DNA of 31,554 nt, taken from the UHGV virus genome UHGV-0071094; one strand, 5' to 3'. The notes below the pieces were generated by a model. The model had not been told where the DNA came from, searched no databases, and saw nothing but the letters and a program-made list of their open reading frames with translations. Positions within the stretch are counted from its first letter, which is position 1, and every line of letters starts with the position of its first letter. The stretch is from a virus. Positions 1 to 25,521 of this stretch are shown piece by piece. Made by a program: the position numbers and the translations under genes.

Positions 1-95
1 CCCAAAGAATGTGATGAATGTACTCAGAAGTCTTCCTGTGCTGGTTATTTCAGTTCATCAAAAGGCCGTTTTCATCAACCACCGAGACCAATTTT

Positions 96-731
96 ATGAA
101 AAAATTTAATTTCGCTGCTCTGCTTCCGGGATTTTTAGCACTCAATAATTCTGTATGGGCAAGTGATTCCTCCACTGGTGCAAGTGATTTGCCCGGTATG
201 ACTCTTAATGAGCATGATTTAGTTATAGCTCCACTTAACACGGAAGTACCTTTCTACATTGCAGGGCATCGTAGTCATAGCTCCCATCGAAGCCATAGTT
301 CTCATAGATCTTCGTCTGGTGGTGGGTACTATGGTGGAAGCACTCCTTATTATCCTAAAACATACAGTTCACCAAGCTCATCAGGCTCATCCACTTCAGG
401 TACAAATTCGCCATCGTCTTCTTCATCTGTTCGTTCGCTTCGCTCTAATGACGCCGATGCCTCTACGACCACAAACTCTGCTGGAATGAATGGAACTACT
501 CGTGCAAGTAGTGGGCTGGCTTCTGATACTGAAAAGCGTAAGCGTTTGATCATGCGAGTGCAGTTCGCATTACTGGATAAAGGGTTTTATAACGGCAATA
601 TAGACGGAAGTATGGGGCCTGCGACACGAACTGCTATCAAAAATTACAGAGTTGCATATGGGCTTCCTACTCCAGTAAGAGAAACATTAGATGCTCAGTT
701 ATTGAACTCTTTGAATATACTGGCTCGTTAA
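96..731 (+). CDS. Secreted protein with His/Ser-rich low-complexity region and C-terminal putative peptidoglycan-binding domain
   Basis: ORF 18..731; internal Met at 96 gives a signal-peptide-like N-terminus (MKKFNFAALLPGFLALNNSVWA); HRSHSS x3 and a Ser-rich linker; C-terminal ~60 aa (RVQFALLDKGFYNGNIDGSMGPATRTAIKNYRVAYGLPT) resembles the PG_binding_1 consensus. Start codon choice is inferred. Confidence 0.55.
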   Translation: MKKFNFAALLPGFLALNNSVWASDSSTGASDLPGMTLNEHDLVIAPLNTEVPFYIAGHRSHSSHRSHSSHRSSSGGGYYGGSTPYYPKTYSSPSSSGSSTSGTNSPSSSSSVRSLRSNDADASTTTNSAGMNGTTRASSGLASDTEKRKRLIMRVQFALLDKGFYNGNIDGSMGPATRTAIKNYRVAYGLPTPVRETLDAQLLNSLNILAR

Positions 732-749
732 AATATTAGGTAAAATAGA

Positions 750-2357
750 ATGAAGATAAAACTCTCTATTTATAAAACAAAAAGGTTTAGCGATGATATT
801 GATCAGGTTTTGAATTTGGAAAGGGTCAAAAGACCTGTTGAATTCGAGATGGAGGATGCACGAGCATATCTATATGTAAAGGAGTACATGGACCCAAAAC
901 CTCCTGAATGGACCACCTTTTTTATGGACCAAAATCCTGGCATAGAACCTGATTTCTTCGGTATGAATAGTAGCACAGGAGCAGTATTAGTTATTGAAGC
1001 TAACAATTCCAGATATCTTATTCCCTTTGGAACCGGTCATCACTTAATCAATGATGGCAGCATTGTCAAAGGATTTGGGCTTAAAACAACTCTTAATAGT
1101 ATAGAACATAAAAAAATTCGCAGTTTAGATAAAGGCAGTCACAACGAAACGAACCTGTTAACTCGCAGTCAGAGCAGTAAAGAAGTCGATATATACAACC
1201 TAAAAATAGATTCTGAGATGGATATTCTCACAACTCTCACAGGCACTTCGACAGAAGATATTTTAGGAAGTAAAATTACTGGCAAAGATGCTTTTGTGAT
1301 CATGCCGGATATTGAATTGAAGGCTATTCCAGCACTATTGACCAAAATAGACTCTATTTACTTATTACCTCTTCCTGAAGAATTCGAATGGGTTAACAAT
1401 ATCAAGGAGGCTGATGAACAAGAAGTTGAGATATTGGATTCGCTTTTGATTGATCGGATAAAGGAAAAAGACTTCAATGATTTATGGCTTGGAGAGCCAG
1501 AAATAGTAGACTGGGAAAATCAAATAGGCTATTGCTTTGATAAGAGACAAAGATTCATTCATGAAACCTTATCAATATACCATGTTTGTGATTATTTTGA
1601 TGGTAAGAAAACTGAAGTAACTGTTGATGAACTCAAAAAAAATTATCTGCATGTTTTGAATGCCGATTTTGAATCGATAAAAAAATGGTCTTTATATAGG
1701 TGCCTCTATGCCGAGATAAAAGAAGGTGATCAGAACTATATTCTTCGAGACTCTATATGGTATGTTGCAGATAGGAATTTTGTATCGACTATTGATGATG
1801 AAATGAAAAAAATAATTCATTATGAGGAGTCGGATAAATTCCCTGTATATTCATATAAACGAGAGGAGGATTATAATAAAAAACTTTGCCAAGATGATAA
1901 TTCCTTTACACACATGGATCAGAAATTCATTCATCATGGTGGTGGTAAAAGTAAGATTGAATTTTGTGATCTTATCAGAGGTCAATCAGATTTTATCCAT
2001 GTAAAATATTATACTGGTTCGCAAAGTATGAGCCATCTTTTTTCACAAGGATTTATAGGTTCTGAACTTTTTATAAGTGACTCTGAATTTCGAGGCAAAC
2101 TTAATGAGAAACTACCTGCTCATATAAAATTAGCCGATCACATAAATAGACCAGATGCTAAAAAATATAAACTAGTTTTCGCCATAGCTTCTAATAAAAA
2201 TCTTCCCGAAGATTTACCTTTGTTTTCTAAAGTAAACTTGAAAAATTTCCACAAGAGTATTACCAATTTTGGGTATGAGGTCAGGATCTGCAAAATTGCT
2301 GTGGACCCAGATATTTATAAAAAGAAGCTATGTAAACCACAAAAGAACAAGCTTTAA
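750..2357 (+). CDS. Hypothetical 535-aa protein of unknown function; possible nuclease-like C-terminal region
   Basis: Long uninterrupted AT-rich ORF starting 19 bp after the stop of the upstream gene (operon-like). No canonical NTPase motif seen. C-terminal segment IEFCDL...SDFIHVKYY loosely resembles a PD-(D/E)xK-type pattern (weak inference). Confidence 0.5.
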   Translation: MKIKLSIYKTKRFSDDIDQVLNLERVKRPVEFEMEDARAYLYVKEYMDPKPPEWTTFFMDQNPGIEPDFFGMNSSTGAVLVIEANNSRYLIPFGTGHHLINDGSIVKGFGLKTTLNSIEHKKIRSLDKGSHNETNLLTRSQSSKEVDIYNLKIDSEMDILTTLTGTSTEDILGSKITGKDAFVIMPDIELKAIPALLTKIDSIYLLPLPEEFEWVNNIKEADEQEVEILDSLLIDRIKEKDFNDLWLGEPEIVDWENQIGYCFDKRQRFIHETLSIYHVCDYFDGKKTEVTVDELKKNYLHVLNADFESIKKWSLYRCLYAEIKEGDQNYILRDSIWYVADRNFVSTIDDEMKKIIHYEESDKFPVYSYKREEDYNKKLCQDDNSFTHMDQKFIHHGGGKSKIEFCDLIRGQSDFIHVKYYTGSQSMSHLFSQGFIGSELFISDSEFRGKLNEKLPAHIKLADHINRPDAKKYKLVFAIASNKNLPEDLPLFSKVNLKNFHKSITNFGYEVRICKIAVDPDIYKKKLCKPQKNKL

Positions 2358-2517
2358 ATAAATTTTTCAATGCCAGAGACGTTTGCCAGTTCATGCAGAA
2401 AATCGCTTTTGTAAGTTACAGTCCATGTATCTTGGTTTAGAACAAAGTGGTGTCAAAAAAGGTTTATGCCTTGGGAGGGAATAAGGGGCTGGGAAATTTA
2501 ACCCCTTATAGAGTTGT

Positions 2518-2738
2518 TATGCCGCAATAGCTTTAAATTTTTGAGCAATGACATAATCACTCCACCACTGCATGAGAACCATTCGTTCTGCGAGATACTC
2601 GGCACGATTATAGGCTGCAATTATTTAATCTTTCTTCGAGTGGGCAAGGGCCGCTTCTAAGACACCAGTCCTGAACTTACCAGATTCCTCTGTCGCTGTT
2701 CTCGCAATAGATCTCATTCTGTTAACCATAAGTTCACC
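2518..2738 (-). pseudogene. Remnant of a tyrosine integrase 3' end (last ~65 codons, internal TAA)
   Basis: Minus-strand translation gives ...SGKFRTGVLEAALAHSKKD*IIAAYNRAEYLAERMVLMQWWSDYVIAQKFKAIAA*, matching the C-terminal motif of P4-type integrases (compare int at 12083..13345). About 85% identical over ~170 bp to 6490..6660. Confidence 0.55.
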
Positions 2739-2856
2739 TCCTTAAACCGTTCGAATAATTACGGCTTATACTGCCTACTTATGCTAATATCTAAGAGAAG
2801 CCATTGTGGTTGTGTAAGTATACTTCTTGGTTTATTTCGACTATAGAAAACCATAC

Positions 2857-3753
2857 CTATGACTGGCTGTTTTCAGCAAGAGTCTTATCATCTAAAGAAT
2901 TTATTTTCGAAATTCTTTTTAACTCATTAAGATAATCAACCTCGTTTTCCAAGAACCAATGAAGAACTTTAGAGTTACCAAGTAATTTATTAATATATGA
3001 CTGTATTATAACGAATTTCAACATATCTGAGCCATACTCGGTTTGAAGCTTTTTTGTTTCTTCCGAAGTTGTTGCCATTTCTTGTTCCAGACGAAGTATG
3101 GTTTTTTTTATGTCCTTTTTATAGGGAGTGTTTTTCCCTTTATTTACTATCATTGATGCCGGTGTTGCATCCAAGATGCTCATTGCAAATTTTTTACTAT
3201 AATTATCAAAATTAATCATTGTACCGACTGCTTCAATTTGACGAATTGGTTTCATTTTCCTCAAAACATCAAATGTAGCCTTAGGTATAGGTTTATCAGA
3301 AAGTTTCGCAATCACACTTGGATCTATACCGTTCATTACATTAGCTTTATCTTTTATGGCATCAACAGATATGCCCAAAGCAGCACTAAGTTTTTCAATT
3401 GATACTTTTGCCAGAGACTTAATTATCATTCTATGTTCTTCAACTACATTTATATGATTCACTTGTTTGTTAGGAGTGAACGCATCATCTATGCTCGAAA
3501 GTATACATGGAGCTTTTTCTATGCCTAAATCTTTTAAAGCCTCAACCCGCAAATGGCCATCGAGTATCTTAATGGCATCTTTATCTTTGTCATAGAACAC
3601 TATTATTGGTTCAATAATACCTAAGCTTTCAATTGAGGTAACTATCTGATGATATTTATGACTTAGCTTTACATTTTCTAACAATTCCTTAGAGGGAATT
3701 AACTTGTTAGTTTCTAAATAAATAAAATTGTCGCCAAAACGTATCTGAATCAT
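2857..3753 (-). CDS. ParB/Srx-superfamily (ParB N-terminal domain-like) protein
   Basis: 298-aa ORF with ILDGHLRVEALKDLG motif typical of the ParB N-terminal nuclease-like domain; start overlaps the stop of the upstream gene by 4 nt. Confidence 0.6.
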   Translation of the reverse strand: MIQIRFGDNFIYLETNKLIPSKELLENVKLSHKYHQIVTSIESLGIIEPIIVFYDKDKDAIKILDGHLRVEALKDLGIEKAPCILSSIDDAFTPNKQVNHINVVEEHRMIIKSLAKVSIEKLSAALGISVDAIKDKANVMNGIDPSVIAKLSDKPIPKATFDVLRKMKPIRQIEAVGTMINFDNYSKKFAMSILDATPASMIVNKGKNTPYKKDIKKTILRLEQEMATTSEETKKLQTEYGSDMLKFVIIQSYINKLLGNSKVLHWFLENEVDYLNELKRISKINSLDDKTLAENSQS

Positions 3754-4646
3754 TTTGATGCCTCTTTGTTTATTGGATTGAGGATCTGAGATGGCAGTTC
3801 TGATAGATTCTCTTGTTCAAGTATATTTTGAAAGCTTTTATTCATCATTATGACGTTAAAAATCTCATTTACTATCAGCAAGTTAGTTTTAATAAATTTA
3901 GAGTTGTTATAAACAGATTTATGTTCAGCGATACTATTTTCATAAAGCTCAATTAACTCCTCAGCAGTCATTCTTTTTGATGGTTTGTGATAATAAAACC
4001 CGGCTGCTTTTGCACCTTTATTCCCAATTGTTCGCTGATTTAGAATGTGTTTTATCTTTATAATGTCCCGGCTTTTTATTAATTTTTTATCATATGCTTC
4101 GGTAAGAATATCTTGTGCTTCTTCAGTGTCACATCTTGCAAATTGTACTGCGAGATACAGAGGCAAATTCCCCCGTTCGACTGCAGAGAGAAGTTTATGC
4201 TCTCCCTTATCAAGAAGCATATTTATACTGCTCACCCAGTTCGATGAATACCCAGTAATCTCACTTATTTCGGAGTCTGAAAGTCCTCTGTTTTTCATAT
4301 CTTTTATTATCTGTAATAACTCATTGGAACGTGGTCTCCTCCTTGCAATGTTTTCAACCAAACTCATAACATAAGCATCTTCTTCTGATACATCTCTTAT
4401 AATTGCTGGAATAATGGTTTCACCTAATGCAACGAGCGCCTCTATTCTCCCTTGGCCACAAATTAAAGCATATTTGAAGTCGTCTTCATCAATCGCTCTT
4501 ACGCTTATAGGCTTGCTTAACCCTCTTTTTTTTATGCTTTCCTTAATTTCTTCATGCACTACCTTATTTCTAGTTCGCGGGTTAAGAAATTTTATTTTGG
4601 CAATTTCAATTTGGATTATTGGGAATTCATTTGATTCAGGCAGCAT
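3750..4646 (-). CDS. ParB/RepB-like protein (ParB N-terminal domain)
   Basis: 298-aa ORF; GQGRIEALVALG and VENIARRRPR motifs resemble ParB box regions; overlaps the upstream recombinase gene by 11 nt. Confidence 0.6.
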   Translation of the reverse strand: MLPESNEFPIIQIEIAKIKFLNPRTRNKVVHEEIKESIKKRGLSKPISVRAIDEDDFKYALICGQGRIEALVALGETIIPAIIRDVSEEDAYVMSLVENIARRRPRSNELLQIIKDMKNRGLSDSEISEITGYSSNWVSSINMLLDKGEHKLLSAVERGNLPLYLAVQFARCDTEEAQDILTEAYDKKLIKSRDIIKIKHILNQRTIGNKGAKAAGFYYHKPSKRMTAEELIELYENSIAEHKSVYNNSKFIKTNLLIVNEIFNVIMMNKSFQNILEQENLSELPSQILNPINKEASK

Positions 4647-6192
4647 ATAGTTCCCTCACTTTCATGCGAGTAATAATTTGTAGAAGTTTATCCAGATTAT
4701 CAAATCTATAGAGATCTAATCGAATGTTGTTTGTTTCCGTCATCCACATTTTACTATATTCGTTTTCAATCTTTGGTATGATATAAAAATCAAGTGGTGA
4801 AATATTTTGTGAATCCATTCGTATAACAATTGTTATGTCTGCTTTCTGTGAGTTATCAAACCGGACTTTCCATCTGAGTTTACCCGATTTCATATGTGTG
4901 CATTTAGTAATAAGGACGGAAATTAAAAACTCATCATTGATGTAAAGCATTGGTGCATATTTATATTCGTCTATATAGCAGTTGCTTTTTAAAATTTCCC
5001 CCTTAAAATCCTCAATTATGCCTGAGTAAAATGATCTTAGTGCTTCATTTATTTGGATATAGCTGTAATCATGTTCTGGCTTATAACCAATCAAAGTATA
5101 TGCTCTTAAAAGACCACCAAATCGGGTTCTGTAAACAGAAGATGAAGGGCCTGTATCATCTTCATCAATGATAAAGCCAGATAGTTTTCCATTAGATTCT
5201 AATTTTTGTTTTAGCTTTTCTAAAAGCTCTTCATTAGTCAAATGTACGGATCGGAGCTGAATTATTTCTTGAGCTTTATTATATTTTTTCTTTGAAATAA
5301 TGGGTTTATATGCCTTGTCGCATCTAACCCATTCATTTTTTGGGTTTTTTACAAGCCTACTTTTTAGTTTAGATGAGGTTTTGTTATATATGTTATTTCC
5401 AATATATTTTTCATTTGTCAAGATTTGATGTATTTTTGCACGAGTCCATAGTGTTCCATTTTCTGCAGGTATATTCTGTTCATTTAGTCTCTCAGCAATA
5501 ATGAATTCTGGCATGTTATCATCTATAAAGAGATCATAGATGCTATTTACAATTTTTATCTCATTTTTTGGTCCCGGAATTAATATCACCCTATCTGTTT
5601 GAATACTCTTTCTTTTGCGGAAGCCCAATATTTCTTTAGCTATGCCATTTTCATCTACTAAAAGACGTCTTAGCCCATAACCAGCCATTCCGCCTTGATG
5701 ATAACCAAGCTTTATTAAATTTGCTTGCCCTATAAATACCTTTTCTGATAAATTCCTGCTGTGATATGCAGCACTAGATCTTTTTATATTCAGTATAACA
5801 GAAGACTCTAAAGGGAAATCTTTAGTGGGAATAGGTTCGGAACAGTATATAAGATCTACACCGTTTCTCTCAAATAGAAAGGAATAATATGCAGCTTCAT
5901 CACTATTTTGAAAACGACCAAAACGGCTCACATCATAAAATAATACAGCCTGTATATCTATTTTCTTTTGTTCTACATCACTAAGTAACTGCTGCAAAGA
6001 ATGCCGGCCTATGATACTGACTCCGCTCTTACCTGCATCATCGTAGGTATAAGCGATTTCCATATTGTTCTTTTCAGCATAATCTTTGATATATTCGGAC
6101 TGATTATGTAAAGAATATTGCTGATGGTCGGTAGACATCCGCAAGTACTGTGCGACCCTAACTTTATGATTTTTATCATTTTCGCTAGCCAT
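4636..6192 (-). CDS. Large serine recombinase (resolvase N-terminal catalytic domain plus recombinase domain)
   Basis: 518-aa ORF; N-terminal VAQYLRMSTDHQ motif with catalytic Ser as in the resolvase/invertase domain; size and C-terminal extension typical of large serine recombinases. Confidence 0.8.
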   Translation of the reverse strand: MASENDKNHKVRVAQYLRMSTDHQQYSLHNQSEYIKDYAEKNNMEIAYTYDDAGKSGVSIIGRHSLQQLLSDVEQKKIDIQAVLFYDVSRFGRFQNSDEAAYYSFLFERNGVDLIYCSEPIPTKDFPLESSVILNIKRSSAAYHSRNLSEKVFIGQANLIKLGYHQGGMAGYGLRRLLVDENGIAKEILGFRKRKSIQTDRVILIPGPKNEIKIVNSIYDLFIDDNMPEFIIAERLNEQNIPAENGTLWTRAKIHQILTNEKYIGNNIYNKTSSKLKSRLVKNPKNEWVRCDKAYKPIISKKKYNKAQEIIQLRSVHLTNEELLEKLKQKLESNGKLSGFIIDEDDTGPSSSVYRTRFGGLLRAYTLIGYKPEHDYSYIQINEALRSFYSGIIEDFKGEILKSNCYIDEYKYAPMLYINDEFLISVLITKCTHMKSGKLRWKVRFDNSQKADITIVIRMDSQNISPLDFYIIPKIENEYSKMWMTETNNIRLDLYRFDNLDKLLQIITRMKVRELYAA

Positions 6193-6489
6193 GCACGAAA
6201 CCTCATGGATGATTCAATACAATGTAGATGATAAAATTGATCAATTTCTAACCAATTTCAACTGTTTTATCATTGATTAGAGCGAATTTAGTAAATCTTC
6301 GAGGTGTATGATAATCGAGAAGATATGTGAATTATGTAGCTGATATGACCAACAGCTTTCGGTATGTGGCCTCAAGTTACCCATCCGTAAATGGCTATGC
6401 TTAGTCAACATTTGTTAATATGTGTGATTATAATTCTTTAACTAAATCAAGATAGTTAACCCATCAGGGGAGAGTTATGCGGCAATAAC

Positions 6490-6955
6490 TTAGCATTTTT
6501 GAGACGCAACATAGTCACTCCACCATTGCATGAGAACCACCCGTTCTGTGGGATATTCTGCACGATTGTAGGCTGCAATTATTTCATCTTTCTTCGAGTG
6601 GGTAAGGGCGGCTTCGAAGACATCAGTCCTAAACTTTCCAGACTCATCAGCAGCATCGCATACCGTGAGCTACAAGCTTACCTCCGAACCCCATACGGAT
6701 TATGGCCGCATTAGCTGTTTGCTCATGCATATGGTTAAGAGGAGCCTTTATGCTTGGAAACACCCATTCACGATGCCCACTTATCACTTTCATTGACTCT
6801 AGGACTCGTAAAGCTTCTTTGCTTAGTGGAACTTTGTGAGGCTTCTTCATTTTCATAAACTCAGCCGGGATGTTCCACATACCAGTTTCTATATCAATAT
6901 CTGTCCATCTTGTGCGAACCGCTTCAGCGGGCGAACCCATGTTAGAAGTTGCCAC
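6490..6955 (-). pseudogene. Truncated, frameshifted tyrosine integrase (C-terminal catalytic half only)
   Basis: ORF 6647..6955 encodes an integrase catalytic-domain segment (WTDIDIETGMWNIPAEF...HREWVFPS...AHGMR). The C-terminal ...DESGKFRTDVFEAALTHSKKDEIIAAYNRAEYPTERVVLMQWWSDYVASQKC* continues in another frame (about 14-nt deletion relative to the copy at 2518..2738). The N-terminal ~220 codons are absent. Confidence 0.7.
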
Positions 6956-7377
6956 TCAATCAGTAGCCTTGTTTCTAACCGGATAGAAGCATTGTTTAGA
7001 GCAACTAGGAAGCGGGGGGATTACTGTTTCTGGTAAAGACTCTTTTGGTGGTGAACTGGACGCCTGGAATCAATATGAGAAAACTACTTAGTGCAACAGG
7101 AGCTGAATTAACTAATGGTGTAACATTACCTAGTGGTTGGCTTGTCAGTGGTATGAGCAAGGGAGCCAATAATCCTGAAAATTTAAGAGCGTTTGCTGTT
7201 TGTATGAGACAATGGCAGCATAAAAATTCTAGGATAAACTTTTGCCTTAATTAAAATGATAGGTGGTATATTTATAGGGGTTATCTTAGGAAGAATATTT
7301 TTAATGCTATTGATGAGAAGTATCGGACATGATTTAATGTTGTTTATGTTTTAGAATTCTCATATTCAGGCGGTTTC

Positions 7378-7743
7378 ATGATAAAACAGAAGTTAAAGAA
7401 TGACTGGGATATTCCTGCAATTCTTCGTCTTACTAAAGAACAAAAAAGGCTAAAATTGTCTGTTCAAGAAGTTGCAGACCTTCTGGACTTAAGCTCATAC
7501 TTTTTTGAGTTAGCTGTCGATGAGAAGGTGGATTTCAAATTTTATGACCTTCCTGAAAAGGTTAAAAAAAAGCTGCATTATGCAGGTTTTGATATTTTCT
7601 ATTTAATGACTGGTGAGTATTCAGGTAGTGAACCGGCATTGAAAATCGCCAGTTTTGAATATTCTATAAAGGATATGTCTCCTGAAGAAAAAAATGAAGT
7701 GAGAGTGTTGATAGAAAATATACCGATAACAAAACCACACTAA
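7378..7743 (+). CDS. Hypothetical 121-aa protein
   Basis: AT-rich ORF with no recognised domain; weak RBS; immediately upstream of a membrane protein gene. Confidence 0.4.
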   Translation: MIKQKLKNDWDIPAILRLTKEQKRLKLSVQEVADLLDLSSYFFELAVDEKVDFKFYDLPEKVKKKLHYAGFDIFYLMTGEYSGSEPALKIASFEYSIKDMSPEEKNEVRVLIENIPITKPH

Positions 7744-7812
7744 AATTACCTTTAATCCTATCATGTTATATTGGTAGGAAAAATTAGAACGTAATGATAT
7801 TGAGGTATAATC

Positions 7813-8436
7813 ATGGCCTTATCATCTGTAGCTATTGTGGCTGGTGTAGCTACTTTGGCAGCATCTCTTTTCAAAAATACAGAACTTCGGGTGATAGATA
7901 TCGTTGAGTTGTCAAAGCTCAGTGTTAACGATATTGAAAACAACCCTCAGTTAAAAATTGTCAAAAATGATATTAATGAACATATAACAGGCATTAAAGA
8001 CCCTGCATTTCATGAGGTTCTAATTGAAATTATGGCTAAGCATAATAAACCTGTTGGTTACTTCAAAAAAGTTGATGGTAGGTTGCAGTATGACCATTCC
8101 TATTATATTTCAATTAATAAGATGGGCTGGGGGCAATACATTAAAAAGTTAATTAATAATCCAAATGATTGGGTTGCAACTTTGATATATGTTATTTTTA
8201 TTATAACAATGTTCGGAATAGCAGTAGATCTTGATAAGGATCCACAAACATTTAATCAAGGTCTGTCTATATTTTTATCAGGTATGGGGGGATTAATGTT
8301 TAGCTTTTTATTAAAAGGCTTATCGGTTCAATGGAGAAATAGCTTTCATAATGTCAAGGATTTCGAATATAAAGAATTGTTTAAAGAGTACGCTAACAGT
8401 AAAATAGATGAAATCATATCATCAAACTCTAAATAA
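7813..8436 (+). CDS. Hypothetical membrane protein (207 aa)
   Basis: GAGG RBS 6-8 nt upstream; hydrophobic segments (ALSSVAIVAGVATLAASLF; WVATLIYVIFIITMFGIAV; LSIFLSGMGGLMFSFLL) suggest about 3 transmembrane helices. Confidence 0.5.
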   Translation: MALSSVAIVAGVATLAASLFKNTELRVIDIVELSKLSVNDIENNPQLKIVKNDINEHITGIKDPAFHEVLIEIMAKHNKPVGYFKKVDGRLQYDHSYYISINKMGWGQYIKKLINNPNDWVATLIYVIFIITMFGIAVDLDKDPQTFNQGLSIFLSGMGGLMFSFLLKGLSVQWRNSFHNVKDFEYKELFKEYANSKIDEIISSNSK

Positions 8437-8539
8437 TGATTCGGAATCATTTCTACCGTTGGCTGGGGTACATAAAAGCGTAATATTTTTATTCATTCTG
8501 ATAAAGCCAAGTCACATGGCTTGGCTTCAGATATATTGA

Positions 8540-8872
8540 TTAAGTATTATCTTTAATCGTTGTTGTTGTTCCGTTGGTTTTCACGGAAGCGATACCTTTT
8601 TCACGGGATTGTTTGGTCGAGTACATCTGGCTTGTACCGATCACATGATGATTAGCCGCCCGTAGGTTAAAATAGGACTTGCCGTTAGATGAGTCTTTCA
8701 GATCGTAGCGTTCATCAAGTGGGCTGTTTGCCTGAACTGATATAATGCCATTTTCTGCAGAACTCTTGGTTGTGTAAAGCTCGCTGGTGAGGATAATTTC
8801 TCCATTACCGGCTTTCAGAACAAATTTATACTGTTCATTACTGCTCTTATCCAATTCGAACCAACCAGCCAT
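8540..8872 (-). CDS. DUF1508 (YegP-like) tandem-repeat protein
   Basis: 110-aa ORF with two internal repeats (...YKFVLKAGNGEIILTSELYTTKSSAENGIISVQ / ...YFNLRAANHHVIGTSQMYSTKQSREKGIASVK) characteristic of the DUF1508/UPF0339 family. Confidence 0.65.
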   Translation of the reverse strand: MAGWFELDKSSNEQYKFVLKAGNGEIILTSELYTTKSSAENGIISVQANSPLDERYDLKDSSNGKSYFNLRAANHHVIGTSQMYSTKQSREKGIASVKTNGTTTTIKDNT

Positions 8873-9650
8873 ATTAACTCCTTGATAAAGTTGTGATTTT
8901 TACGGCCCAGTGATGAAGAACGAAGCGGGCAAGTTCAGTATGCCTGAAACAAAAATTGTTTCCAATATGTTATGTTTGTATCGGTAGCTGGGAACAAGAC
9001 TACACACTACGAAATGAGGCTTAGCTGTCGCCCACCAGTGTTGGCAGGTATGCCTTAGTGGGAGTCTTAGAGCGGAGGGTATCTTGAATCAATGTCTATT
9101 GCCATATTTACACGACACACGATATATTTTCTTTAGAGTCATATCTTAGGAAACAATAACGGCGACTTGAGCAAAAGTATCTAATATCAATAGATTTTCG
9201 TTAATTTAAAAAAATAGGTGCTCTCTCATAAAATCTGTAGGGTACTTGGTCGTGAATAAATTGCTGAGTTCATGTTGCGATGTCATTATTTGTCATCTTC
9301 CATGTCTCATAATTATCCTAACGTATAGGTTCAATGAAATTCCTTTATTCCTGTGTCTAATCTAATCAATCTAGCAATCTAACCAAACCTGTGTGTGGCG
9401 ATTTTACCTTGTTTAAATGTTCTAGGAATGCCTTTATCTTTTAGTATTAATTATATTAAAGGTTTACTTTCACGATGAGTATTTGCTGTTTCATCGGGAG
9501 GTTAAGATATTCATAATCTATCCTGACTGTAACGAAGATTAATCATTGATTTTATTTATATGTGAAAAAATCACTTTAAATATTGATTTTTTATGATTTA
9601 TGTAGTTTAATTTAAATGTATAGGTGATTTTTTCACATTGGAGAGGTGCT

Positions 9651-11009
9651 ATGTTAATCAGATTCTCAGTCGAAAACTACAAGTCATTCAGAGATAGAGT
9701 CGAGTTTTCAATGGTTTCGAGTAAAGTTCGAAGCCATCCATCACATGTCGTTAAGGCAACTTCTGCGAACGATATAAGTGTGTTAAAAGTTGGAGTTATC
9801 TATGGAGCTAATGCTTCTGGTAAATCCAACATCATCAAAGCAATGAAACATGCTCAAAATATGATTTTGAAAGGAAGTAAAGCTGGTACTAACCTTCCCT
9901 ATGCACCTTTCAGGCTTGATGATGATTTTGAAAAGAAACCCAGCAGATTTGAATTTGAAATTAAAATCAATGGCAAGAACTATGCATATGGATTCTCAGC
10001 TGATCAAAAATCCATTAAAGAAGAGTGGTTGTATGAAATAAACAAGAAGGATGACATTCTTATTTATGAAAGAAGTAATACAACTCACTTTAAATTTGAA
10101 AACATAAAATTTAAAAATGAAGAAGACGAACAATTCCTAAACTTTACAGCAAGAGGAACAAGCGAAAACTCTTTGTTTTTGTACGAATGTTTTGATAGGA
10201 ATGTTCTGAAGGATTTGAATTACATTGTACCAATTTCTGATGTTTTTAAATGGTTTAAAGCTAAGTTACAAATAGTTTTCCCGAATTCTAAATATAGAGA
10301 CCTAGATTTTGGATCTGCTTCTGATGAAAAAGAAGGAGAGCTTATAACTGATATTCTAAAAGATTTTGATACCGGTGTGTCAAAGTTAGTATTAAGAAAA
10401 GTTAGTTCATTTGATGATATAAAACTTCCTCCCAATTTCAAGGACCAGATCATAGAGGATCTTAAATCTAGTAAGGCTGTTGTAATTTCAGGGCCAAGAA
10501 ATAAACGATATAAAGTTGAACTGGGTGAAGATGGAGAAATAACGGTATTTCAATTGATGACGGCCCATAAAGATAAAAATGGTGATGATGTATATTTTGA
10601 ACTCAACCAGGAATCAGATGGTACACAAAGACTTTTTGATATTATACCTGGATTAGTCGAACTTATGTTGAAAGACAAAGTTTATATAATTGATGAAATT
10701 GATCGTAGTTTGCATCCAAAGATTACAAAAACATTTATGAAATTATTCTCTATGAAAACTGTCGGTAAAGACAGTCAACTGATAGTCACCACTCATGAAA
10801 CCGGTCTTTTAGATTTTGAACTTATACGAAGAGATGAGGTTTGGTTTACTGAAAAAAATAAAAGTGGAATTTCGAGAATTTATTCACTCGAAGAATTCCA
10901 GCCTAGGTTTGATAAAGATATACGTAAAGGTTACTTAGTGGGGCGTTTTGGTGGAATTCCTAAAATAAAGAATATATTATCAAACGTTGAAGATTTTCAG
11001 AAGGACTAA
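9651..11009 (+). CDS. ABC/SMC-like AAA ATPase (OLD/AbiLi-like ATPase component)
   Basis: Walker A GANASGKSN; Walker B-like VYIIDEIDRSLH; GGAGAGG RBS before the ATG at 9651 (ORF track start 9624 is less likely); stop 2 bp before the next gene. Confidence 0.7.
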   Translation: MLIRFSVENYKSFRDRVEFSMVSSKVRSHPSHVVKATSANDISVLKVGVIYGANASGKSNIIKAMKHAQNMILKGSKAGTNLPYAPFRLDDDFEKKPSRFEFEIKINGKNYAYGFSADQKSIKEEWLYEINKKDDILIYERSNTTHFKFENIKFKNEEDEQFLNFTARGTSENSLFLYECFDRNVLKDLNYIVPISDVFKWFKAKLQIVFPNSKYRDLDFGSASDEKEGELITDILKDFDTGVSKLVLRKVSSFDDIKLPPNFKDQIIEDLKSSKAVVISGPRNKRYKVELGEDGEITVFQLMTAHKDKNGDDVYFELNQESDGTQRLFDIIPGLVELMLKDKVYIIDEIDRSLHPKITKTFMKLFSMKTVGKDSQLIVTTHETGLLDFELIRRDEVWFTEKNKSGISRIYSLEEFQPRFDKDIRKGYLVGRFGGIPKIKNILSNVEDFQKD

Positions 11010-11011
11010 AA

Positions 11012-11668
11012 ATGCCTCGTGAAAGAAGAGAGTTTGACAGAAGAAGTGGGGTAAAAGACCCGTCTTTAATTGTAATTGCTTGTGAAGGAGAGAAAACAGA
11101 GCAGGACTATTTCAATAGTATATCGGAACTATGTGATGAGTTAGGATCACGTTTACAACTTAAAGTTCTCCCGCCGCGAGAAGAGGGGCATAGTGCGCCT
11201 AGACATGTTTTAGACCAAATGGATAAATATAAAAAAGAATTTGGAATTAAAGTGAATGATGAATTATGTCTGGTAATCGATAGGGATAAACAATCATGGA
11301 CAGAGGCTACTATAAGTGAAGTTGCTCAGTTTTGTCATGCCAAACAATATATTCTGGCTTTAAGTAATCCATGTTTTGAATTATGGCTTCTTATACACCA
11401 TTATGATGTAATGCTCCTCGGTGAGGATGAAAAAAGAAGTATTTTAAGAAATAAAAATGGGTATATGAAAAGCAAACTACGGGATGTTATTGGACAATAT
11501 AACCCAAGTTCTATTAATATTCATGATTTCTGGGGGGTAACTGAAATCGCGATTGACAGAGCTAAACGTTTAGATGTTAATCCAGCTGAGAGATGGCCTA
11601 ATGAAATAGGAAGTCGTGTGTATATAATCATGGAGAAAATACGTCAGTCAATTAATAATCAATTATAA
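11012..11668 (+). CDS. RloB-like / Toprim-domain protein (putative nuclease partner of the ATPase)
   Basis: 218-aa ORF; N-terminal IVIACEGEKTE and downstream LVIDRDKQ give a Toprim-like E...DxD signature; translationally coupled to the ATPase gene. Confidence 0.6.
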   Translation: MPRERREFDRRSGVKDPSLIVIACEGEKTEQDYFNSISELCDELGSRLQLKVLPPREEGHSAPRHVLDQMDKYKKEFGIKVNDELCLVIDRDKQSWTEATISEVAQFCHAKQYILALSNPCFELWLLIHHYDVMLLGEDEKRSILRNKNGYMKSKLRDVIGQYNPSSINIHDFWGVTEIAIDRAKRLDVNPAERWPNEIGSRVYIIMEKIRQSINNQL

Positions 11669-12082
11669 TTATCCTATGTATTCCTTCGCATTTATTCCAT
11701 GCTTTAATAAGTGTATAAGGTTTTAGCTAAGTTGATTTTTTTATTGACTTGGCTTTTTTGTGTCTGGTTTGATGGTCTAGTTATGAGTGTAGGTATTTTT
11801 CGATTAAAGCGTATATCTTGATTTTTATATTAAGAATCATTCCTGATTTCTACTGAAGCCAAGAGAAAATTATTAATATATTTCATAGGATGATTTTGAA
11901 TTAGGATCTAAACAATAAGATATGGTTCACGTAAATTTATTTTGCTGGAGTGATAACTCGATTGGGTGTTTATTGAGGGGGGGCAAAAATATTGGTTTGA
12001 CATTATTATTACTACCTTTTTTTGTTTCTTTGCTCAGTGTTTACGTTGCTTTTTAGCGTGCAAAAAATAGAGAACTATTATA

Positions 12083-13345
12083 CTAATTCATTTTCTTTAT
12101 TCTCTGGGCGAATTCAAACGGTGTAATGTGTTCTTTTCTGTTGGCATTAAGGTAGTCAGCCCACCATTGTAACATGAGTTTTCTCTCTTCGAGATGTTCC
12201 GCTTTGTGGATATATGCTGCCCGAACCGAGTTACGCTCTTGGTGGCTCATTTGACGTTCTACGGCGTCTCTTGACCATAACCCAGATTCGATTAATGCAC
12301 TACAAGCCATAGTTCGAAAACCGTGACCACAAACTTCAGCTTTCGTGTCGTAACCCATGGTGCGAAGAGCCTTGTTAACAGTGTTTTCGCTGATTGGTTT
12401 GTCATCGCGACTAAAACCAATGAACATAAGATCCTTTTCTCCACTTATAGCTTGGAGCCTTTTAAATAATACTACAGCCTGCTTACTTAGCGGCACAAGA
12501 TGAGGGGTTTTCATTTTTGAGCCCCTATTTGAATACTTAACCCCCTCCAATTCTCGTCTTTCTGCAGGGATTGTCCATAAGGAGTTTTTGAAATTCACCT
12601 CAGACCAACGAGCGAATCTAAGTTCACTTGAACGGATGAAAGTCAGTAGAGTTAATTGAACTGCTATTTGAGTGATACCTTTCCCTTTATAGGCATCAAT
12701 CCGTTTGAGAAGCTCAGGAAGTCGTTCGAGGGGAAGGGCAGGGCGGTGATTACTCTTGGCAGTGGTTACAGCGCCTGCGAGGTCGTAAGCTGGGTTTTGG
12801 TCAATCAAAGCATTGTGAACAGCATACCGCATGATGGCAGTGATTCTTTGTTGTAAACGGGCAGCAAGTTCAAGATGTCCAGTTTCCTCTGCTTTTTTCA
12901 GAGGAACAAGTAAATCACGAGTTTTAAGCTCACTAATGTTCCGCTTACCGATAACAGGAAATACATGAGTGATCAGGCTGTTTAATACGGTAGTTCTGTG
13001 ACTGTCTGACCAGGTTCTGTTGCTTGAGTGCCAGTCTCTGGCAACAGTTTCAAAAATGAGTAAGCCTTTCTCTTCAATCTTTTCTGTTTTTCGCTTTTCG
13101 CCAGGGTCAACATTGTTGGCAATGAGTTGCCTTGCTTCTTCTCTTCTACGACGAGCTTCTGCTAAAGACACTTCGGGATAAACACCAAGCGCCAACATTT
13201 TTTGCTTACCAGAAAAGCGATATTGAAGCCGCCAGTATTTTGAACCCGTAGGGTGAACCAGGAGATGCATACCATCCCCATCTGTTAACTTGACGGGCTT
13301 TTCAGTAGGTTTCGCATTTCTGACTTTTACCTCAGTTAGTGCCAT
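12083..13345 (-). CDS. P4/CP4-57-type tyrosine integrase (Arm-DNA-binding DUF4102 plus catalytic domain)
   Basis: 420-aa ORF; N-terminus MALTEVKVRNAKP...KLTDGDGMHLLV...GSKYWRLQYRF typical of the P4-like integrase arm-binding domain; C-terminal HGFRTMA...AAY...LMLQWWADYL catalytic motifs. Sits at the AT-rich/GC-normal boundary. Confidence 0.9.
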   Translation of the reverse strand: MALTEVKVRNAKPTEKPVKLTDGDGMHLLVHPTGSKYWRLQYRFSGKQKMLALGVYPEVSLAEARRRREEARQLIANNVDPGEKRKTEKIEEKGLLIFETVARDWHSSNRTWSDSHRTTVLNSLITHVFPVIGKRNISELKTRDLLVPLKKAEETGHLELAARLQQRITAIMRYAVHNALIDQNPAYDLAGAVTTAKSNHRPALPLERLPELLKRIDAYKGKGITQIAVQLTLLTFIRSSELRFARWSEVNFKNSLWTIPAERRELEGVKYSNRGSKMKTPHLVPLSKQAVVLFKRLQAISGEKDLMFIGFSRDDKPISENTVNKALRTMGYDTKAEVCGHGFRTMACSALIESGLWSRDAVERQMSHQERNSVRAAYIHKAEHLEERKLMLQWWADYLNANRKEHITPFEFAQRIKKMN

Positions 13346-13520
13346 TGTGACCTCCTGATGATGGTATCTGCATTATCGAACTTACAATACCAACAGTTAT
13401 ACCAACAAAACAAGCTGGATGTCCGTATATCCCAACAGTCCTTGGTAGACCATGGTTAAAGTGTACTTCATTGAAATGATTGGGAAAAATAGACTTTGAT
13501 ATACTTCGGTAGACAGGGTT

Positions 13521-13536
13521 CTGGCGTCCCCTGCAG
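13521..13536 (-). other. Candidate prophage attR core (tRNA 3'-end-like sequence)
   Basis: Minus strand reads CTGCAGGGGACgCCA, resembling the acceptor-stem 3' end plus CCA of tRNA-Arg (argW as I recall it: ...CCTGCAGGGGACACCA); located between the excisionase and the next integrase, where an attR is expected. Confidence 0.4.
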
Positions 13537-13609
13537 ACATCTACTTGAGGCAGCAGGGGATTGATTAGAATGGTATTTTTTAGATGTGAGAAATATTTTA
13601 CCCGCTATT

Positions 13610-13810
13610 TTACCCATTGGCGCGGCTTAAGAGCTTATTTTTGAATTCACAATGGTCACGATATAACCATCTTGCTCGCCCGTGGATAACTTTGGCTTTA
13701 GGCAGGTCTCCGGACTTAATCCGGTCATAGATGAAGGTTTTACCGAAGCCAGTATCGGCCATGATGAATTTCAAATCAACCAGGGAATCAGGCTGTAGTT
13801 CGTGTTGCAT
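13610..13810 (-). CDS. torI: AlpA/TorI-family excisionase (winged-helix recombination directionality factor)
   Basis: 66-aa ORF (MQHELQPDSLVDLKFIMADTGFGKTFIYDRIKSGDLPKAKVIHGRARWLYRDH...) with AlpA-like HTH; position at the prophage end opposite the intS-like integrase matches the KplE1 layout. Gene symbol by analogy, not verified. Confidence 0.75.
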   Translation of the reverse strand: MQHELQPDSLVDLKFIMADTGFGKTFIYDRIKSGDLPKAKVIHGRARWLYRDHCEFKNKLLSRANG

Positions 13811-13828
13811 GAGTGCTATCTCCGAATA

Positions 13829-13844
13829 GGGAATCGAACCTGCA
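13829..13844 (-). other. tRNA T-arm-like 16-mer (TTGCAGGTTCGATTCC) immediately upstream of the excisionase gene
   Basis: Minus-strand sequence matches the T-stem/T-loop (GGTTCGATTCC) region of a tRNA and diverges where the acceptor 3' strand would begin. Confidence 0.45.
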
Positions 13845-13852
13845 AATCAGGC

Positions 13853-13876
13853 AAGAAAAAACCGCCATCAGGCGGC
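13853..13876 (-). terminator. Rho-independent terminator-like hairpin with U-run (minus strand)
   Basis: GCCGCC-TGAT-GGCGG stem-loop followed by TTTTTTC on the minus strand, overlapping the stop of the small ORF upstream. Confidence 0.4.
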
Positions 13877-14035
13877 TTGGTGTTCTTTCAGTTCTTCAAT
13901 TCGAATATTGGTTATGTCTGCATGTGCTATCTGCGCCCATATCATCCAGTGGTCATAGCAGTCATTGATGTTCTCTGCTTCGATAACTCTGTTGAATGGT
14001 TCTCCATTCCATTCACCTGTGACTCGGAAGTACAT
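13868..14035 (-). CDS. Small hypothetical phage protein (55 aa)
   Basis: Minus-strand ORF MYFRVTGEWNGEPFNRVIEAENINDCYDHWMIWAQIAHADITNIRIEELKEHQAA preceded by a GGAGA RBS; below the ORF-track size cut-off; the overlapping plus-strand ORF 13802..14050 is judged spurious. Confidence 0.35.
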   Translation of the reverse strand: MYFRVTGEWNGEPFNRVIEAENINDCYDHWMIWAQIAHADITNIRIEELKEHQAA

Positions 14036-14222
14036 TTATCATCTCCATAAAACAAAACTCGCCGTAGCGAGTTCAGATAAAAGAAATCCCCGCGAATGCG
14101 AGGATTGTTAGTTGCGCTCTGCTGCTGCCTTAGCCATTACCATATCCACCAAACTTCACCAGACATGATTCTCGCAATCACTATCATCACCAAAGTGATA
14201 ATCACAACTTTAACTGGCGGCA

Positions 14223-14951
14223 TCATTCACCATCCTGCTGCGGTGCTGCTGGCAGTGGCATCCAGTGGGTAATACTACCTGGATATAAACTCTTTGCTGG
14301 CCCCCAGTAGCCATCTGTATTAACACGCATAACCTCACAGCCATCAAAACCATCAGTTACAAGAACGTATTCATAAGGTTCCGGCATCCTTTCGCTTACC
14401 GGAATCCAACTATCCGGAGTTCCCGGAGAGTTGCCATTTACATCGAAGTTTGGCTCTGCGTCCTGAACCAGGAGGATGTAACCATTCTTGGCTGTATCAA
14501 GTTCTAACGCCTCGGTGACGGTGCCGAAATAGCGATTGCCTAAATCAGCATCACAAGTGCTTACATCAATGGAAACTTCCATGCCCTCGATTAATTCTGG
14601 CAAGTTGTAAGTTTGGCTTACAGGTTCGGCTTCCAGTTCTGCTATGCGCTTTTTTGCTGCTTCCAGCTCGCCAAGCAGCGCCAAGACGGTAGCCGGATTG
14701 GCTGCGGCGATGAATTCAGCATTGGCCTGCTGTTCCATTTGGAAATCTTCATCGAAACCGCTTTCAGGATGCGCTCCTTCAATTCTGCAAATGGGAATAT
14801 ATCCAGCAGCCTCGCGATGAATTAGCGCATCATCACAATCAAATCGGCTCTCTCCATATTCGAGCGACCACTCACCACACGTTGCTTTTTCTGCCGCTTC
14901 ACGCAGTGCCTGGTAATTAATTTCGCTCACTGTTTGCCTCCTTTGCGCCAC
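14223..14951 (-). CDS. Ead/Ea22-like protein with C-terminal DUF551 domain
   Basis: 242-aa ORF; C-terminal ...[35 protein letters not shown]...THWMPLP resembles DUF551; typical lambdoid early-left accessory gene. Confidence 0.7.
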
Positions 14952-15550
14952 ATCGCATTCAGATATTTGTTGTCATTAACAGAACCGAAACTCTTTCTTT
15001 TAAGCAATTCCTCTCTCGATGGCATTGGCTTTACGCGTTGGCGAATAATCATTTCTGCCGGAAGAATGCCGGGATTGTATGCAAGTCCTCTCATGGTAAA
15101 TTCCTCAGTCATTACTGATAGCGCCATAGCGTGAGCGGTAATTACGCAGGCGCGGGTCAATTTCAGGGAAGTGGGTATATCTGCATCTTTCGCATCATCA
15201 ATGCCGAACAAACCATTGAGGCAATACTTGCGTGCATAAGAGCTTGTAGCTCCAGTAACTTGTGCAGAATCCATTCCTTTCTTGCTTTCTTCCTCTCGTG
15301 CAAGAGCGGTTGCCGTATGACTGTTTTCGCCATCGGTAATAGTTGCCGTGGCTTTCACATAATACCGATCACCAATCAACACAACTTCATCGCTGATTGA
15401 TAAAAACAGGCCATTCAGTAGCGGCTTAACGCCTTCAAGAATATCTTCGCAGCTTCTGTATTTATATTTACCGAATGAGTTGTACTGATTTTTTGGCGCG
15501 TTCAGATTCTCCTGAATGGCAGCCAGTCTTGCGTAAAATTCTTTGCTCAT
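14927..15550 (-). CDS. erf: ERF-family single-strand annealing protein (P22 Erf-like)
   Basis: Translation from the internal Met ([45 protein letters not shown]...) closely resembles phage P22 Erf as I recall it; the ORF-track start 15580 probably over-extends. Confidence 0.8.
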
Positions 15551-15651
15551 ATGATTGTTCTCAGAATGGACATGGCCCAAGGAAATAACGCTGATTTAAT
15601 ACTTCGACTCGGGACAAGTTAAGGCATACCCGCATTCCTTCGCGGTCACCA

Positions 15652-15810
15652 TTATGGCGATACCAGAGAGCTTTCTGCGTGTACATGCGTCTCTGTAACT
15701 TGCTCTCCTTCACTGTGGTTGCAAGTGACATGAATATCTCCTTCGTTACCGATTAATTCTTTCATCTGACGAATGAATTCTTCGTCTGACCAGTTATCTG
15801 TAAAACTCAT
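15652..15810 (-). CDS. Small phage protein (52 aa) in the Arf/early-left position
   Basis: Minus-strand ORF MSFTDNWSDEEFIRQMKELIGNEGDIHVTCNHSEGEQVTETHVHAESSLVSP; its ATG overlaps the stop of the upstream small gene (ATGA). Confidence 0.4.
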   Translation of the reverse strand: MSFTDNWSDEEFIRQMKELIGNEGDIHVTCNHSEGEQVTETHVHAESSLVSP

Positions 15811-15959
15811 TTCCTGCGATACCATGGAAGGTTGATAGCTAATTTCATCTCTTTATTTGCTTCAAGCCACATTTTGGAATCACCAATAAATCTGGCTATT
15901 ACTGCTTTGTTTTGTGCTGCTCGAAGCATCTGGTGATTGATGGCTATTTCATTGCGCAT
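15807..15959 (-). CDS. Kil-like small protein (50 aa)
   Basis: Minus-strand ORF MRNEIAINHQMLRAAQNKAVIARFIGDSKMWLEANKEMKLAINLPWYRRK; the ...RFIGDSKMW... segment resembles lambdoid Kil as recalled; assignment tentative. Confidence 0.35.
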   Translation of the reverse strand: MRNEIAINHQMLRAAQNKAVIARFIGDSKMWLEANKEMKLAINLPWYRRK

Positions 15960-16078
15960 AACGCCTCCAGTTGTTTCTTTGCTGCTCTGATTAATTGTTT
16001 AACTCGGCGTGATAATTCAGATTCGTGCGGGTAGAAAGCGGACATGACGCCGCTACCCGCGAGCTGAAAGTGCATCAT
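15944..16078 (-). CDS. cIII-like small protein (44 aa)
   Basis: Internal start of ORF 15944..16183 gives MMHFQLAGSGVMSAFYPHESELSRRVKQLIRAAKKQLEALCAMK, resembling lambda CIII (..AG....ESxL.R....L); AAGGAG RBS upstream. Confidence 0.4.
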   Translation of the reverse strand: MMHFQLAGSGVMSAFYPHESELSRRVKQLIRAAKKQLEALCAMK

Positions 16079-19341: not shown

Positions 19342-19343
19342 CC

Positions 19344-20036: not shown

Positions 20037-20045
20037 GGGGTAATC

Positions 20046-23290: not shown

Positions 23291-23314
23291 CGTATGGGGA
23301 ATTGGATTCAATCG

Positions 23315-23704: not shown

Positions 23705-23719
23705 TTTAAGCCCTTATTG

Positions 23720-24306: not shown

Positions 24307-24328
24307 GCCATCACTCCAAGTTAGTGTA

Positions 24329-24380: not shown

Positions 24381-24396
24381 ATATTGTGAGGTGAAC

Positions 24397-24558: not shown

Positions 24559-24626
24559 AGTTGAAGCCCCAACTGCTGTAACAGTCAGGGCTTCGGCATC
24601 AACAAATCGGATTAGGAAATATTGAC

Positions 24627-25505: not shown

Positions 25506-25521
25506 CAGATAACCAACGCAA

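Follow-up and report, generated by a model that had tools for sequence, protein, structure and literature searches.

Two integrase gene ends bracket a recombinase-ParB operon

The DNA analysed here (UHGV virus genome UHGV-0071094, 31,554 nucleotides (nt), hereafter the window) carries close to its left end a cassette of three genes, encoding a large serine recombinase and two ParB-like proteins (ParB2 and ParB1), which lies between the two copies of an imperfect direct repeat. A repeat scan placed these copies at 2493-2690 and 6451-6648, 3958 nt apart, with 160 of 198 positions identical (81%) in an ungapped alignment, and returned them as the sole long direct repeat of the first 10 kb. In pairwise alignment by blastn, 2516-2690 and 6474-6648 are 84% identical over 175 nt without gaps (E=1e-52), in agreement with the ~85% estimated in the initial annotation of the sequence, and the longest perfectly identical run between the copies is 17 nt. 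Since the same 175-nt segment matches the window at all other offsets with a mean of 25.5% (standard deviation 3.4%, maximum 41%), chance similarity of the two copies was excluded.

Both copies are the 3' ends of minus-strand tyrosine integrase genes of the P4 family followed by ~25 nt of common flank. Each of them runs from ~25 nt beyond the integrase stop codon (2517-2519 in the left copy, 6475-6477 in the right one) up into the gene; hence the repeat boundaries coincide with the integrase reading frames, and the description of both segments as last integrase codons plus adjacent non-coding sequence was borne out. The outer end of the left repeat, ~24 nt past the stop codon at 2493-2516 (minus strand), is shared with 6451-6474, and to the left of 2492 the two flanks are unrelated. 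On the inner side of the genes the copies reach further than initially noticed, the left one extending to 2808 and the right one to 7017. Furthermore, 2493-2516 and 6446-6474 are a relic: they derive from the coding end ('...LMLQWWANYLD') of another, third integrase type, as seen in alignments with a related locus (L066) and with the 420-amino-acid (aa) integrase of the window, which is a relative of this type. In L066 the third integrase type is present as a 3' fragment only, fused to the cassette spacer at the relic point. The presence of this relic past both stop codons explains the extension of the repeat beyond them.

The left copy, named int' here, is an orphan 3' fragment (2517-2808, minus strand) that comprises codons ~313-409 and the stop codon of a P4-family tyrosine integrase, and it shows 72% identity by tblastn to residues 316-409 of int_A, the intact integrase of Escherichia coli BL21. 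When int' is compared with E. coli integrase 3' ends at the DNA level, int_A is the nearest (82%) and all others are at or below 77%. Beyond 2690 the fragment is more diverged (~60% identity to int_A), up to a sharp breakpoint at 2808/2809, which corresponds to integrase codon ~313. The part from 2730 to 2808 is strongly diverged and contains four in-frame stops that are common to all int' copies, while 2520-2729 forms 70 codons opening with ATG that are cut in the window by a TAA at 2625-2627. This TAA faces a GAA at 6583-6585 in the right copy, exactly the nonsense change initially reported, and brings the stops of int' in the window to five in total. The translation of the left copy ends with ...MVNRMRSIARTATEESGKFRTGVLEAALAHSKKD, a stop, IIAAYNRAEYLAERMVLMQWWSDYVIAQKFKAIAA and the final stop. 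Box II reads NRMR, with the histidine replaced by asparagine, and the catalytic tyrosine codon is kept but lies downstream of the TAA. In the KD602 genome, which contains the same region, the NCBI pipeline annotates int' as an integrase pseudogene with an internal stop and a missing N-terminus.

The right copy is a remnant of int_A itself (6476-7017, minus strand, codons 225-409, stop codon 6475-6477). It matches residues 225-409 of the BL21 protein with 90-100% identity in three frame-shifted pieces (tblastn). Its N-terminus is lost, its frame shifts near codon 254, 14 nt are missing at about 6654/6655, and a premature TAA is present at 6490-6492. The 14-nt deletion, which had also been noticed from the sequence initially, is absent from all 15 other int_A sequences that were aligned. 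The HGMR and ...AAYNR motifs are kept with a frameshift between them, and the KD602 annotation gives an integrase pseudogene that is frameshifted and lacks its N-terminus. By comparison, int_A of BL21 is intact with 409 aa and scores 444.6 bits against a cut-off of 434 in NCBIfam NF007246/PRK09692. Both copies of the window are homologous to the P4 integrase family over the catalytic C-terminal domain and neither has a complete frame with arm-binding, central and catalytic domains; both are pseudogene remnants. Within the int_A remnant, a patch of ~100 nt (6710-6809) is 74-80% identical to other int_A alleles, with at least 96% identity on both of its sides, and resembles a tract converted from a third integrase allele; int' was rejected as its donor, being only 60% identical there.

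The left copy abuts the cassette, and between the right copy and the recombinase gene there is a conserved spacer of 282 nt (6193-6474 of the interval 6193-6475, minus strand, base 6475 belonging to the int_A stop codon). The operon is read on the minus strand as well. Its first gene encodes the large serine recombinase (4636-6192, 518 aa), which has both a resolvase catalytic domain (PF00239, 5e-22) and a recombinase domain (PF07508, 5.4e-22). It is followed by ParB2 (3750-4646, 298 aa; PF02195 1.6e-13, PF07506 2e-9), the frame of which overlaps both neighbours, and by ParB1 as the last gene (2857-3753, 298 aa; PF07506 2.3e-24, PF02195 8e-6). The two ParB-like proteins share a ParB_N and a RepB C-terminal domain. 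A short spacer of 48 nt (2809-2856, minus strand) follows the ParB1 stop codon and ends, in the sense of the operon, with ...AAGTATACTTACACAAC at the breakpoint 2808/2809.

Cassette-bearing loci occur in two variants

Among 5426 complete E. coli genomes, 656 carry the 3.7-kb cassette, mostly at ~94.6% identity; BL21(DE3) is one of them. In BL21 and GIMC1405 the gene order is ssrA, intact 409-aa int_A, recombinase, ParB2 and ParB1, and the order ssrA, int_A and operon recurs in 8 other enterobacterial species, among them members of Enterobacter, Leclercia, Kluyvera and Phytobacter. The int_A-operon order with the 282-nt spacer is also seen in ~70 metagenome or IMG/VR loci, and the spacer has an identical length in every related locus. 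In relatives of the window, the sequence in front of int_A is ssrA itself or a 30-50-nt fragment of the ssrA 3' end (L003, L012 and many others); such an internal fragment in front of int_A indicates a tandem array behind a prophage. In Enterobacteriaceae, int_A is the integrase of an island inserted at ssrA, the gene of transfer-messenger RNA (tmRNA).

IntA of CP4-57, at ssrA of E. coli K-12, is a P4-type integrase of a tmRNA-linked island. The 409-aa BL21 protein resembles it in domain architecture and in its position next to ssrA, and passes the NCBIfam cut-off, whereas the copies of the window are truncated pseudogenes and are located in an array at argW instead of at ssrA. Indeed, no tRNA, tmRNA or ssrA 3' fragment was found in the window, where the int_A 5' part and the attachment (att) site are gone.

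An alignment of 13 loci showed that the 48 nt after ParB1 are common to all of them and that two variants diverge at the breakpoint. In variant A, ...AAGTATACTTACACAAC is followed by CACAATGG..., the beginning of int'. This variant comprises 23 loci (the window family, F719 (NZ_OY754392), GIMC1405, Enterobacter vonholyi, a species of Kluyvera and metagenome contigs), in all of which int' starts from codon ~313 with an identical breakpoint and the same four stops. Of the 656 complete E. coli genomes that bear the cassette, about 63 belong to variant A. In variant B, with 49 loci including BL21, an unrelated sequence follows the breakpoint and there is no int'; megablast matches of BL21-type loci to the window accordingly begin at 2806-2809. 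Given one breakpoint and the same four stops across genera, the int' junction most likely arose once and was then inherited.

The two tails belong to two integrase lineages

Over the last 70 codons, int' and int_A differ by a synonymous divergence (dS) of 0.57-1.28 with a ratio of non-synonymous to synonymous divergence (dN/dS) of 0.11-0.24. A large dS combined with a low dN/dS means that most of the divergence arose under purifying selection, when both genes were functional. Therefore, int' and int_A derive from two functional integrases, and these are sisters since no intact E. coli integrase is nearer to int' than int_A and since both tails are followed by the common ~25-nt relic. The initial annotation had likewise favoured two related integrases over a recent duplication, and its view is upheld by these values.

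Probable homologous exchange through the integrase tail

Nucleotide diversity among 21 variant-A loci climbs steadily from the operon outwards. From 1.3-1.9% in ParB1 it increases to 4.8% in the decayed 5' segment of int', then to 6-7% over the 42 codons that follow and to 15% over the final 28; past the stop codon it is ~40%. Among the variant-A loci, the ratio of non-synonymous to synonymous polymorphism (pN/pS) of int' is 0.21-0.25, the differences being biased to synonymous ones. Furthermore, the cargo located right after the int' stop codon changes from locus to locus: DUF6119 and Hxs genes in the window and in F719 (L003), a patatin and a DEAD-box helicase in GIMC1405 (L004), where the relaxase is only 72% identical, and different genes again in Enterobacter and Kluyvera. 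Several types of int' tail resemble the tails of other integrase C-terminal sequences in the database, and the int_A alleles are mosaic upstream of about codon 335. Taken together, the diversity gradient, the pN/pS values, the switch of cargo, the tail types and the int_A mosaicism fit repeated homologous exchange with functional alleles, with crossovers that seem to be confined to the conserved C-terminal box.

Recombination between the two tails themselves has also left traces. In five metagenome samples (ERR3405946, ERR13612805, ERZ27306763, ERZ28645356 and the source of OGYH01010737), contigs were found in which ParB2, ParB1 and the breakpoint are followed by the 5' part of int', the 3' part of int_A, the spacer and the recombinase gene. 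Three of these hybrid contigs (L028, L029 and L030) are 99.7-100% identical to one another and a fourth (L117) is 99.3-99.4% identical to them; the fifth (L076) has the same hybrid architecture with other parental alleles, which implies at least two independent crossovers. Both crossovers took place inside CTTGCCCACTCGAAGAAAGATGAAATAATTGCAGC, the longest identical tract, which is 38 nt long in F719-type loci. Such a hybrid junction is what either a tandem duplication of the cassette or its excision as a 3.96-kb circle would leave, and the length of the contigs (0.5-2.8 kb, none of them closing a circle) fits either. The lineage of L117 and L028-L030 was found in four samples and diverges by 0.6%, which suggests a heritable arrangement.

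The proposal of the initial annotation that the repeats could drive rearrangement is therefore supported in one part by these recombinants in relatives, and fails in the other, inversion, since direct repeats give deletion or duplication. For the allele of the window, the deletion of the cassette that had been considered was not encountered, as the cassette is kept in 42 of 42 complete genomes with that allele. In the 5426 complete E. coli genomes we found no reciprocal ParB1-recombinase junction, no product of an in-silico deletion, and neither a second cassette copy nor an empty site; a pattern scan of IMG/VR for the hybrid junction found none. Efficient RecA recombination usually needs roughly 20-30 nt of identity. 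With a longest identical run of 17 nt, the copies of the window are too diverged for efficient recombination. Overall, what had initially been observed at this locus was confirmed and its interpretation was partly supported.

Origin of the repeat pair

We infer that the observed homology, pseudogene status, single breakpoint, divergence pattern and hybrid junctions go back to a fusion of islands: the repeats are probably the tails of two sister integrases that were brought together when tandem islands were fused by a deletion, the tail having then served for homologous exchange, with RecA as the presumed agent. Two related islands would first have been inserted in tandem at ssrA. One deletion would then have run from just after ParB1 through the end of the first island and the internal attachment site into the second integrase gene, int_B, which would have lost its first ~312 codons; the region downstream of ParB1 would have been fused to int_B codon ~313, and int' would accordingly be the last ~96 codons of int_B. 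The fusion junction would have arisen once and have been inherited ever since. The conserved C-terminal box (around ...EAALAHSKKDEIIAAYNR...) may subsequently have provided the homology for exchanges of RecA type between int' and other integrase alleles, by which the int' tail would be swapped along with the adjacent cargo, and the same box may occasionally have recombined int' with int_A. In the lineage of the window, the piece would later have been fused into the island array at argW, where int_A decayed too. The int_B parent would be expected to be an intact integrase with the tail ...IAQKFKAIAA, followed by ...CAACTCTATAAGGGGTTAAAT and by the DUF6119-Hxs genes.

That islands grow by tandem accretion and lose parts by deletion is established (Pavlovic 2004; Bellanger 2011; both as cited in bioRxiv 10.64898/2026.01.13.699239), and the same preprint reports integrase pseudogenes in 81% of the island intervals that lack an intact integrase. 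In the model of accretion and deletion for ICESt1 and its cis-mobilisable elements (CIMEs), related same-site elements adjoin, deletions fuse them and integrase remnants stay behind, which resembles the situation of the window, and tandem arrays with internal ssrA 3' fragments are seen in its relatives. Unlike these streptococcal integrative and conjugative elements, the present case concerns P4-type ssrA islands of Enterobacteriaceae and has no internal att site. A second precedent concerns the exchange of cargo.

In the defence hotspots of P2- and P4-like elements, variable cargo lies between conserved genes that act as homology arms. Similarly, diversity here climbs from a conserved anchor into unrelated defence cargo (Hxs, patatin and helicase, or a cyclic-oligonucleotide-based antiphage signalling system, CBASS), but the anchor is a dead integrase stub and not a functional core gene, and the exchange is deduced from sequence patterns.

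Several observations weigh against a fusion of tandem islands. No intact int_B was found beside DUF6119-Hxs, and the second parental island is therefore only postulated; a search with the 70-aa int' peptide returned short open reading frames (ORFs) only, and those that were looked up lie at or near contig ends. No att remnant or ssrA-derived sequence was found between ParB1 and int', so the model needs a deletion that removed the internal att site. L066 has DUF6119-Hxs immediately next to its cassette (87% protein identity) with no int' in between, and this neighbourhood may predate the proposed fusion. There are four stops in the first ~27 codons of int' and ancestrally none in the next 70, an uneven distribution for which simple decay is insufficient unless later patching by recombination is added. 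Finally, the hybrid junction is heritable (99.3-99.4% identity), which one would not expect of a transient circle or of a tandem duplication that is unstable.

Two conventional explanations of flanking repeats were rejected. Attachment sites (attL/attR) would share, at both element ends, an identical core derived from the 3' end of the target tRNA or tmRNA gene; the repeats are integrase coding sequence at 84% identity with a longest exact run of 17 nt and show no similarity to ssrA or to a tRNA. A location beside the target tRNA or tmRNA gene is seen in the relatives and not in the window, which belongs to the argW array. A target-site duplication of a transposon was discarded as well, because the copies measure 175-290 nt and are diverged, against the 2-14 bp of identical sequence expected right at the element ends, and the right copy lies away from the recombinase gene. 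The repeats of the window are without function: they are not attachment sites but probably a scar of island fusion.

A different reading of the hybrid contigs is that the recombinase-ParB-ParB cassette is a discrete excisable element whose ends are the integrase tails. It would have a ~3.96-kb circular or amplified form, with an integrase-tail-like segment between ParB1 and the recombinase gene, and would enter the tails of P4-type integrase genes either by homologous recombination or by catalysis of its serine recombinase, its own tail restoring the frame and the displaced tail becoming int'. The junction contigs of the five samples, representing one lineage (L028, L029, L030 and L117) and another (L076) with independent crossovers, run through both expected branch points, and the heritability of the junction agrees with this proposal. 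Moreover, the int_A tail and the 282-nt spacer always accompany the cassette, int_A is intact after the supposed insertion in most loci, and in its 5' part int' comes close to the cassette in conservation while its tail and the cargo vary. On the other hand, the left copy is absent from 49 of 72 loci and from ~90% of the cassette-bearing E. coli genomes, and the distant operons of Xenorhabdus, pAtC58 and a Tn7-like cargo have no adjacent integrase fragment. The att sites of serine integrases are short and without homology over ~300 nt, quite unlike the homologous repeats of that length considered here. The longest identical tract contains both crossovers, as predicted for plain RecA recombination, the contigs are short and none is circular, so that strain mixtures can explain the paths through the branch points, and the 5426 complete genomes yielded no empty site, second copy or junction. 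We consider such an element unlikely. Slightly more doubtful still is its extension, in which the cassette hitch-hikes in islands by way of P4-integrase tails, carrying a replacement tail, and would constitute an undescribed mobile-element module. If this were true, the repeats would be the left and right ends of the element, and the contigs joining ParB1, hybrid tail and recombinase would be its free or amplified form.

It is quite improbable that int' has been kept for a peptide of 70 residues, the integrase C-terminus, perhaps modulating an integrase. Such a peptide would start at the ATG at 2727-2729 behind a strong predicted ribosome-binding site (AAGGAGGTGAACTT). Nearly all copies retain the ATG and this Shine-Dalgarno sequence, the common ancestor had no stop in the 70 codons while the preceding ~27 codons contain four, and pN/pS is 0.25 over codons 1-42. 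However, the stops in the last 70 codons are lineage-specific and affect four different codons, 10 of the 16 distinct sequences having at least one, and the start codon is lost in one copy. In the window the frame is cut at codon 35 by the TAA, which is also present in L006 and L073 (the variant-A copies L003, L004 and L010 having GAA), and the histidine of box II (HxxR) is replaced. Segments imported from functional alleles explain the low pN/pS equally well, and the diversity gradient supports such an import.

Lastly, a recent local duplication of the int_A 3' end, by slippage or upon cassette insertion and since decayed, is hardly credible: int' and int_A are indeed mutually closest among E. 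coli integrases and share the ~25-nt flank, but a decaying duplicate would be expected to have a much higher dN/dS than that observed at such a dS, the 5' third of int' is just ~60% identical to int_A, and the structure with its fixed breakpoint spans genera.

The recombinase-ParB operon and its relatives

By sequence, the recombinase matches the TP901-1 integrase, SPbeta YokA and TnpX in the PDB, ParB2 matches Spo0J, ParB, Noc and KorB, and the only match of ParB1 is Noc. The NCBIfam scores of the cassette proteins are far below the family cut-offs and PADLOC gave no credible match for any of the three; a known defence system was therefore rejected as the identity of the cassette. The 518-aa protein resembles the recombinases of SCCmec (ccr), Tn4451 (TnpX), TP901-1 and SPbeta (SprA) in combining resolvase and recombinase domains and in its sequence matches. 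Unlike those elements, the cassette has two ParB/RepB-like partners and is flanked by repeats that are homologous gene fragments of ~175-290 nt. No short att sites for the recombinase were identified, and no description of a recombinase and ParB operon was found in the literature searched.

The same three-gene operon, with a recombinase identity of ~45%, is located beside an AbiE pair on Agrobacterium pAtC58 (L119), and another lies directly after tniQ in a Tn7-like element of a Piscinibacter plasmid (L120). In Xenorhabdus (L014-L016) it lies near a tRNA-Leu gene, an integrase stub and AbiE fragments. The operon with its overlapping frames is conserved from Alpha- to Gammaproteobacteria, often beside AbiE and usually at the boundary between core and cargo of mobile elements, after a P4-type integrase or tniQ. 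At the DNA level the cassette had no match in plasmids. Its presence on known phages was discarded, as the phage matches concern only the neighbouring Sf6-like prophage.

In the spacer between int_A and the recombinase gene, a perfect 14-bp palindrome, AAATTGATCAATTT, was found at 6234-6247, ~40 nt upstream of the recombinase start, with a central GATC. It sits in a longer inverted repeat (6228-6273) and has been retained in part in the L066 cassette, which is 87% identical. This palindrome could be an operator or a ParB-type binding site, although it occurs once and is, by count alone, not above chance. Promoter and terminator scans gave nothing above the shuffled expectation.

Genomic neighbourhood of the window

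The window is E. coli chromosome: at least 80% of its positions 1-14000 was found in 42 complete genomes, those listed being at least 99.8% identical. In KD602 the order is yfdC, argW, intS, an Sf6/P22-like prophage, torI, the 420-aa integrase, an AbiL-like pair, the int_A remnant, the recombinase, the two ParB genes, int', DUF6119, hxsABCD, a relaxase and three tyrosine recombinases. The window itself starts with the 3' end of hxsC followed by hxsA (96-731 in the KD602 annotation, 18-731 as a mechanical ORF) and by a DUF6119/TIGR04141 gene (750-2357). HXS has recently been shown to be an antiphage system that blocks the entry of phage DNA (PMC13128918). As DUF6119 adjoins Hxs in the distant locus L066 too, a functional link between the two is suggested.

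On the other side of the cassette, 9624-11668 encodes an AAA_21 ATPase (461 aa) and a RloB-family protein (218 aa), assigned by PADLOC to AbiLi (3e-91) and AbiLii (3e-23), which make up a second defence pair of the island array. The stretch 12083-31554 holds the 420-aa P4-type integrase and the Sf6/P22-like prophage. The KD602 prophage at this site has replication, terminase and head genes that the window lacks. The stretch also carries a gtrA/gtrB/gtrC-like set for O-antigen modification (27577-30193) and IntS (30347-31540). By comparison with KD602, argW is located just past the right end of the window, and a 16-nt copy of the argW 3' core is present at 13830-13845.

Integrase stubs of ~100 codons were noted in three loci (L026, L066 and int'). 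In L026 (1-460) the integrase 3' fragment starts from codon ~300, with unrelated sequence upstream, and is directly followed by a CBASS operon (SMODS, ThiF, JAB, SAVED). A common truncation hotspot at codons 300-313 was considered for int', L066 and L026 and rejected, since the breakpoints are 10-15 codons apart and the search was biased to short fragments.

Implications

The object is ordinary in kind, consisting of integrase remnants in a fused and decayed island. The scar helps to delimit a composite island, and with neither integrase functional, the copy in the window is no longer mobile. Beyond this locus, the variant-A islands provide a worked example of an integrase-gene tail that would act as a homology arm, swapping defence cargo (Hxs, patatin-helicase and others) between related islands. 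They also bring to light an undescribed operon of a recombinase and two ParB-like genes that is present in ~12% of complete E. coli genomes, including BL21(DE3).

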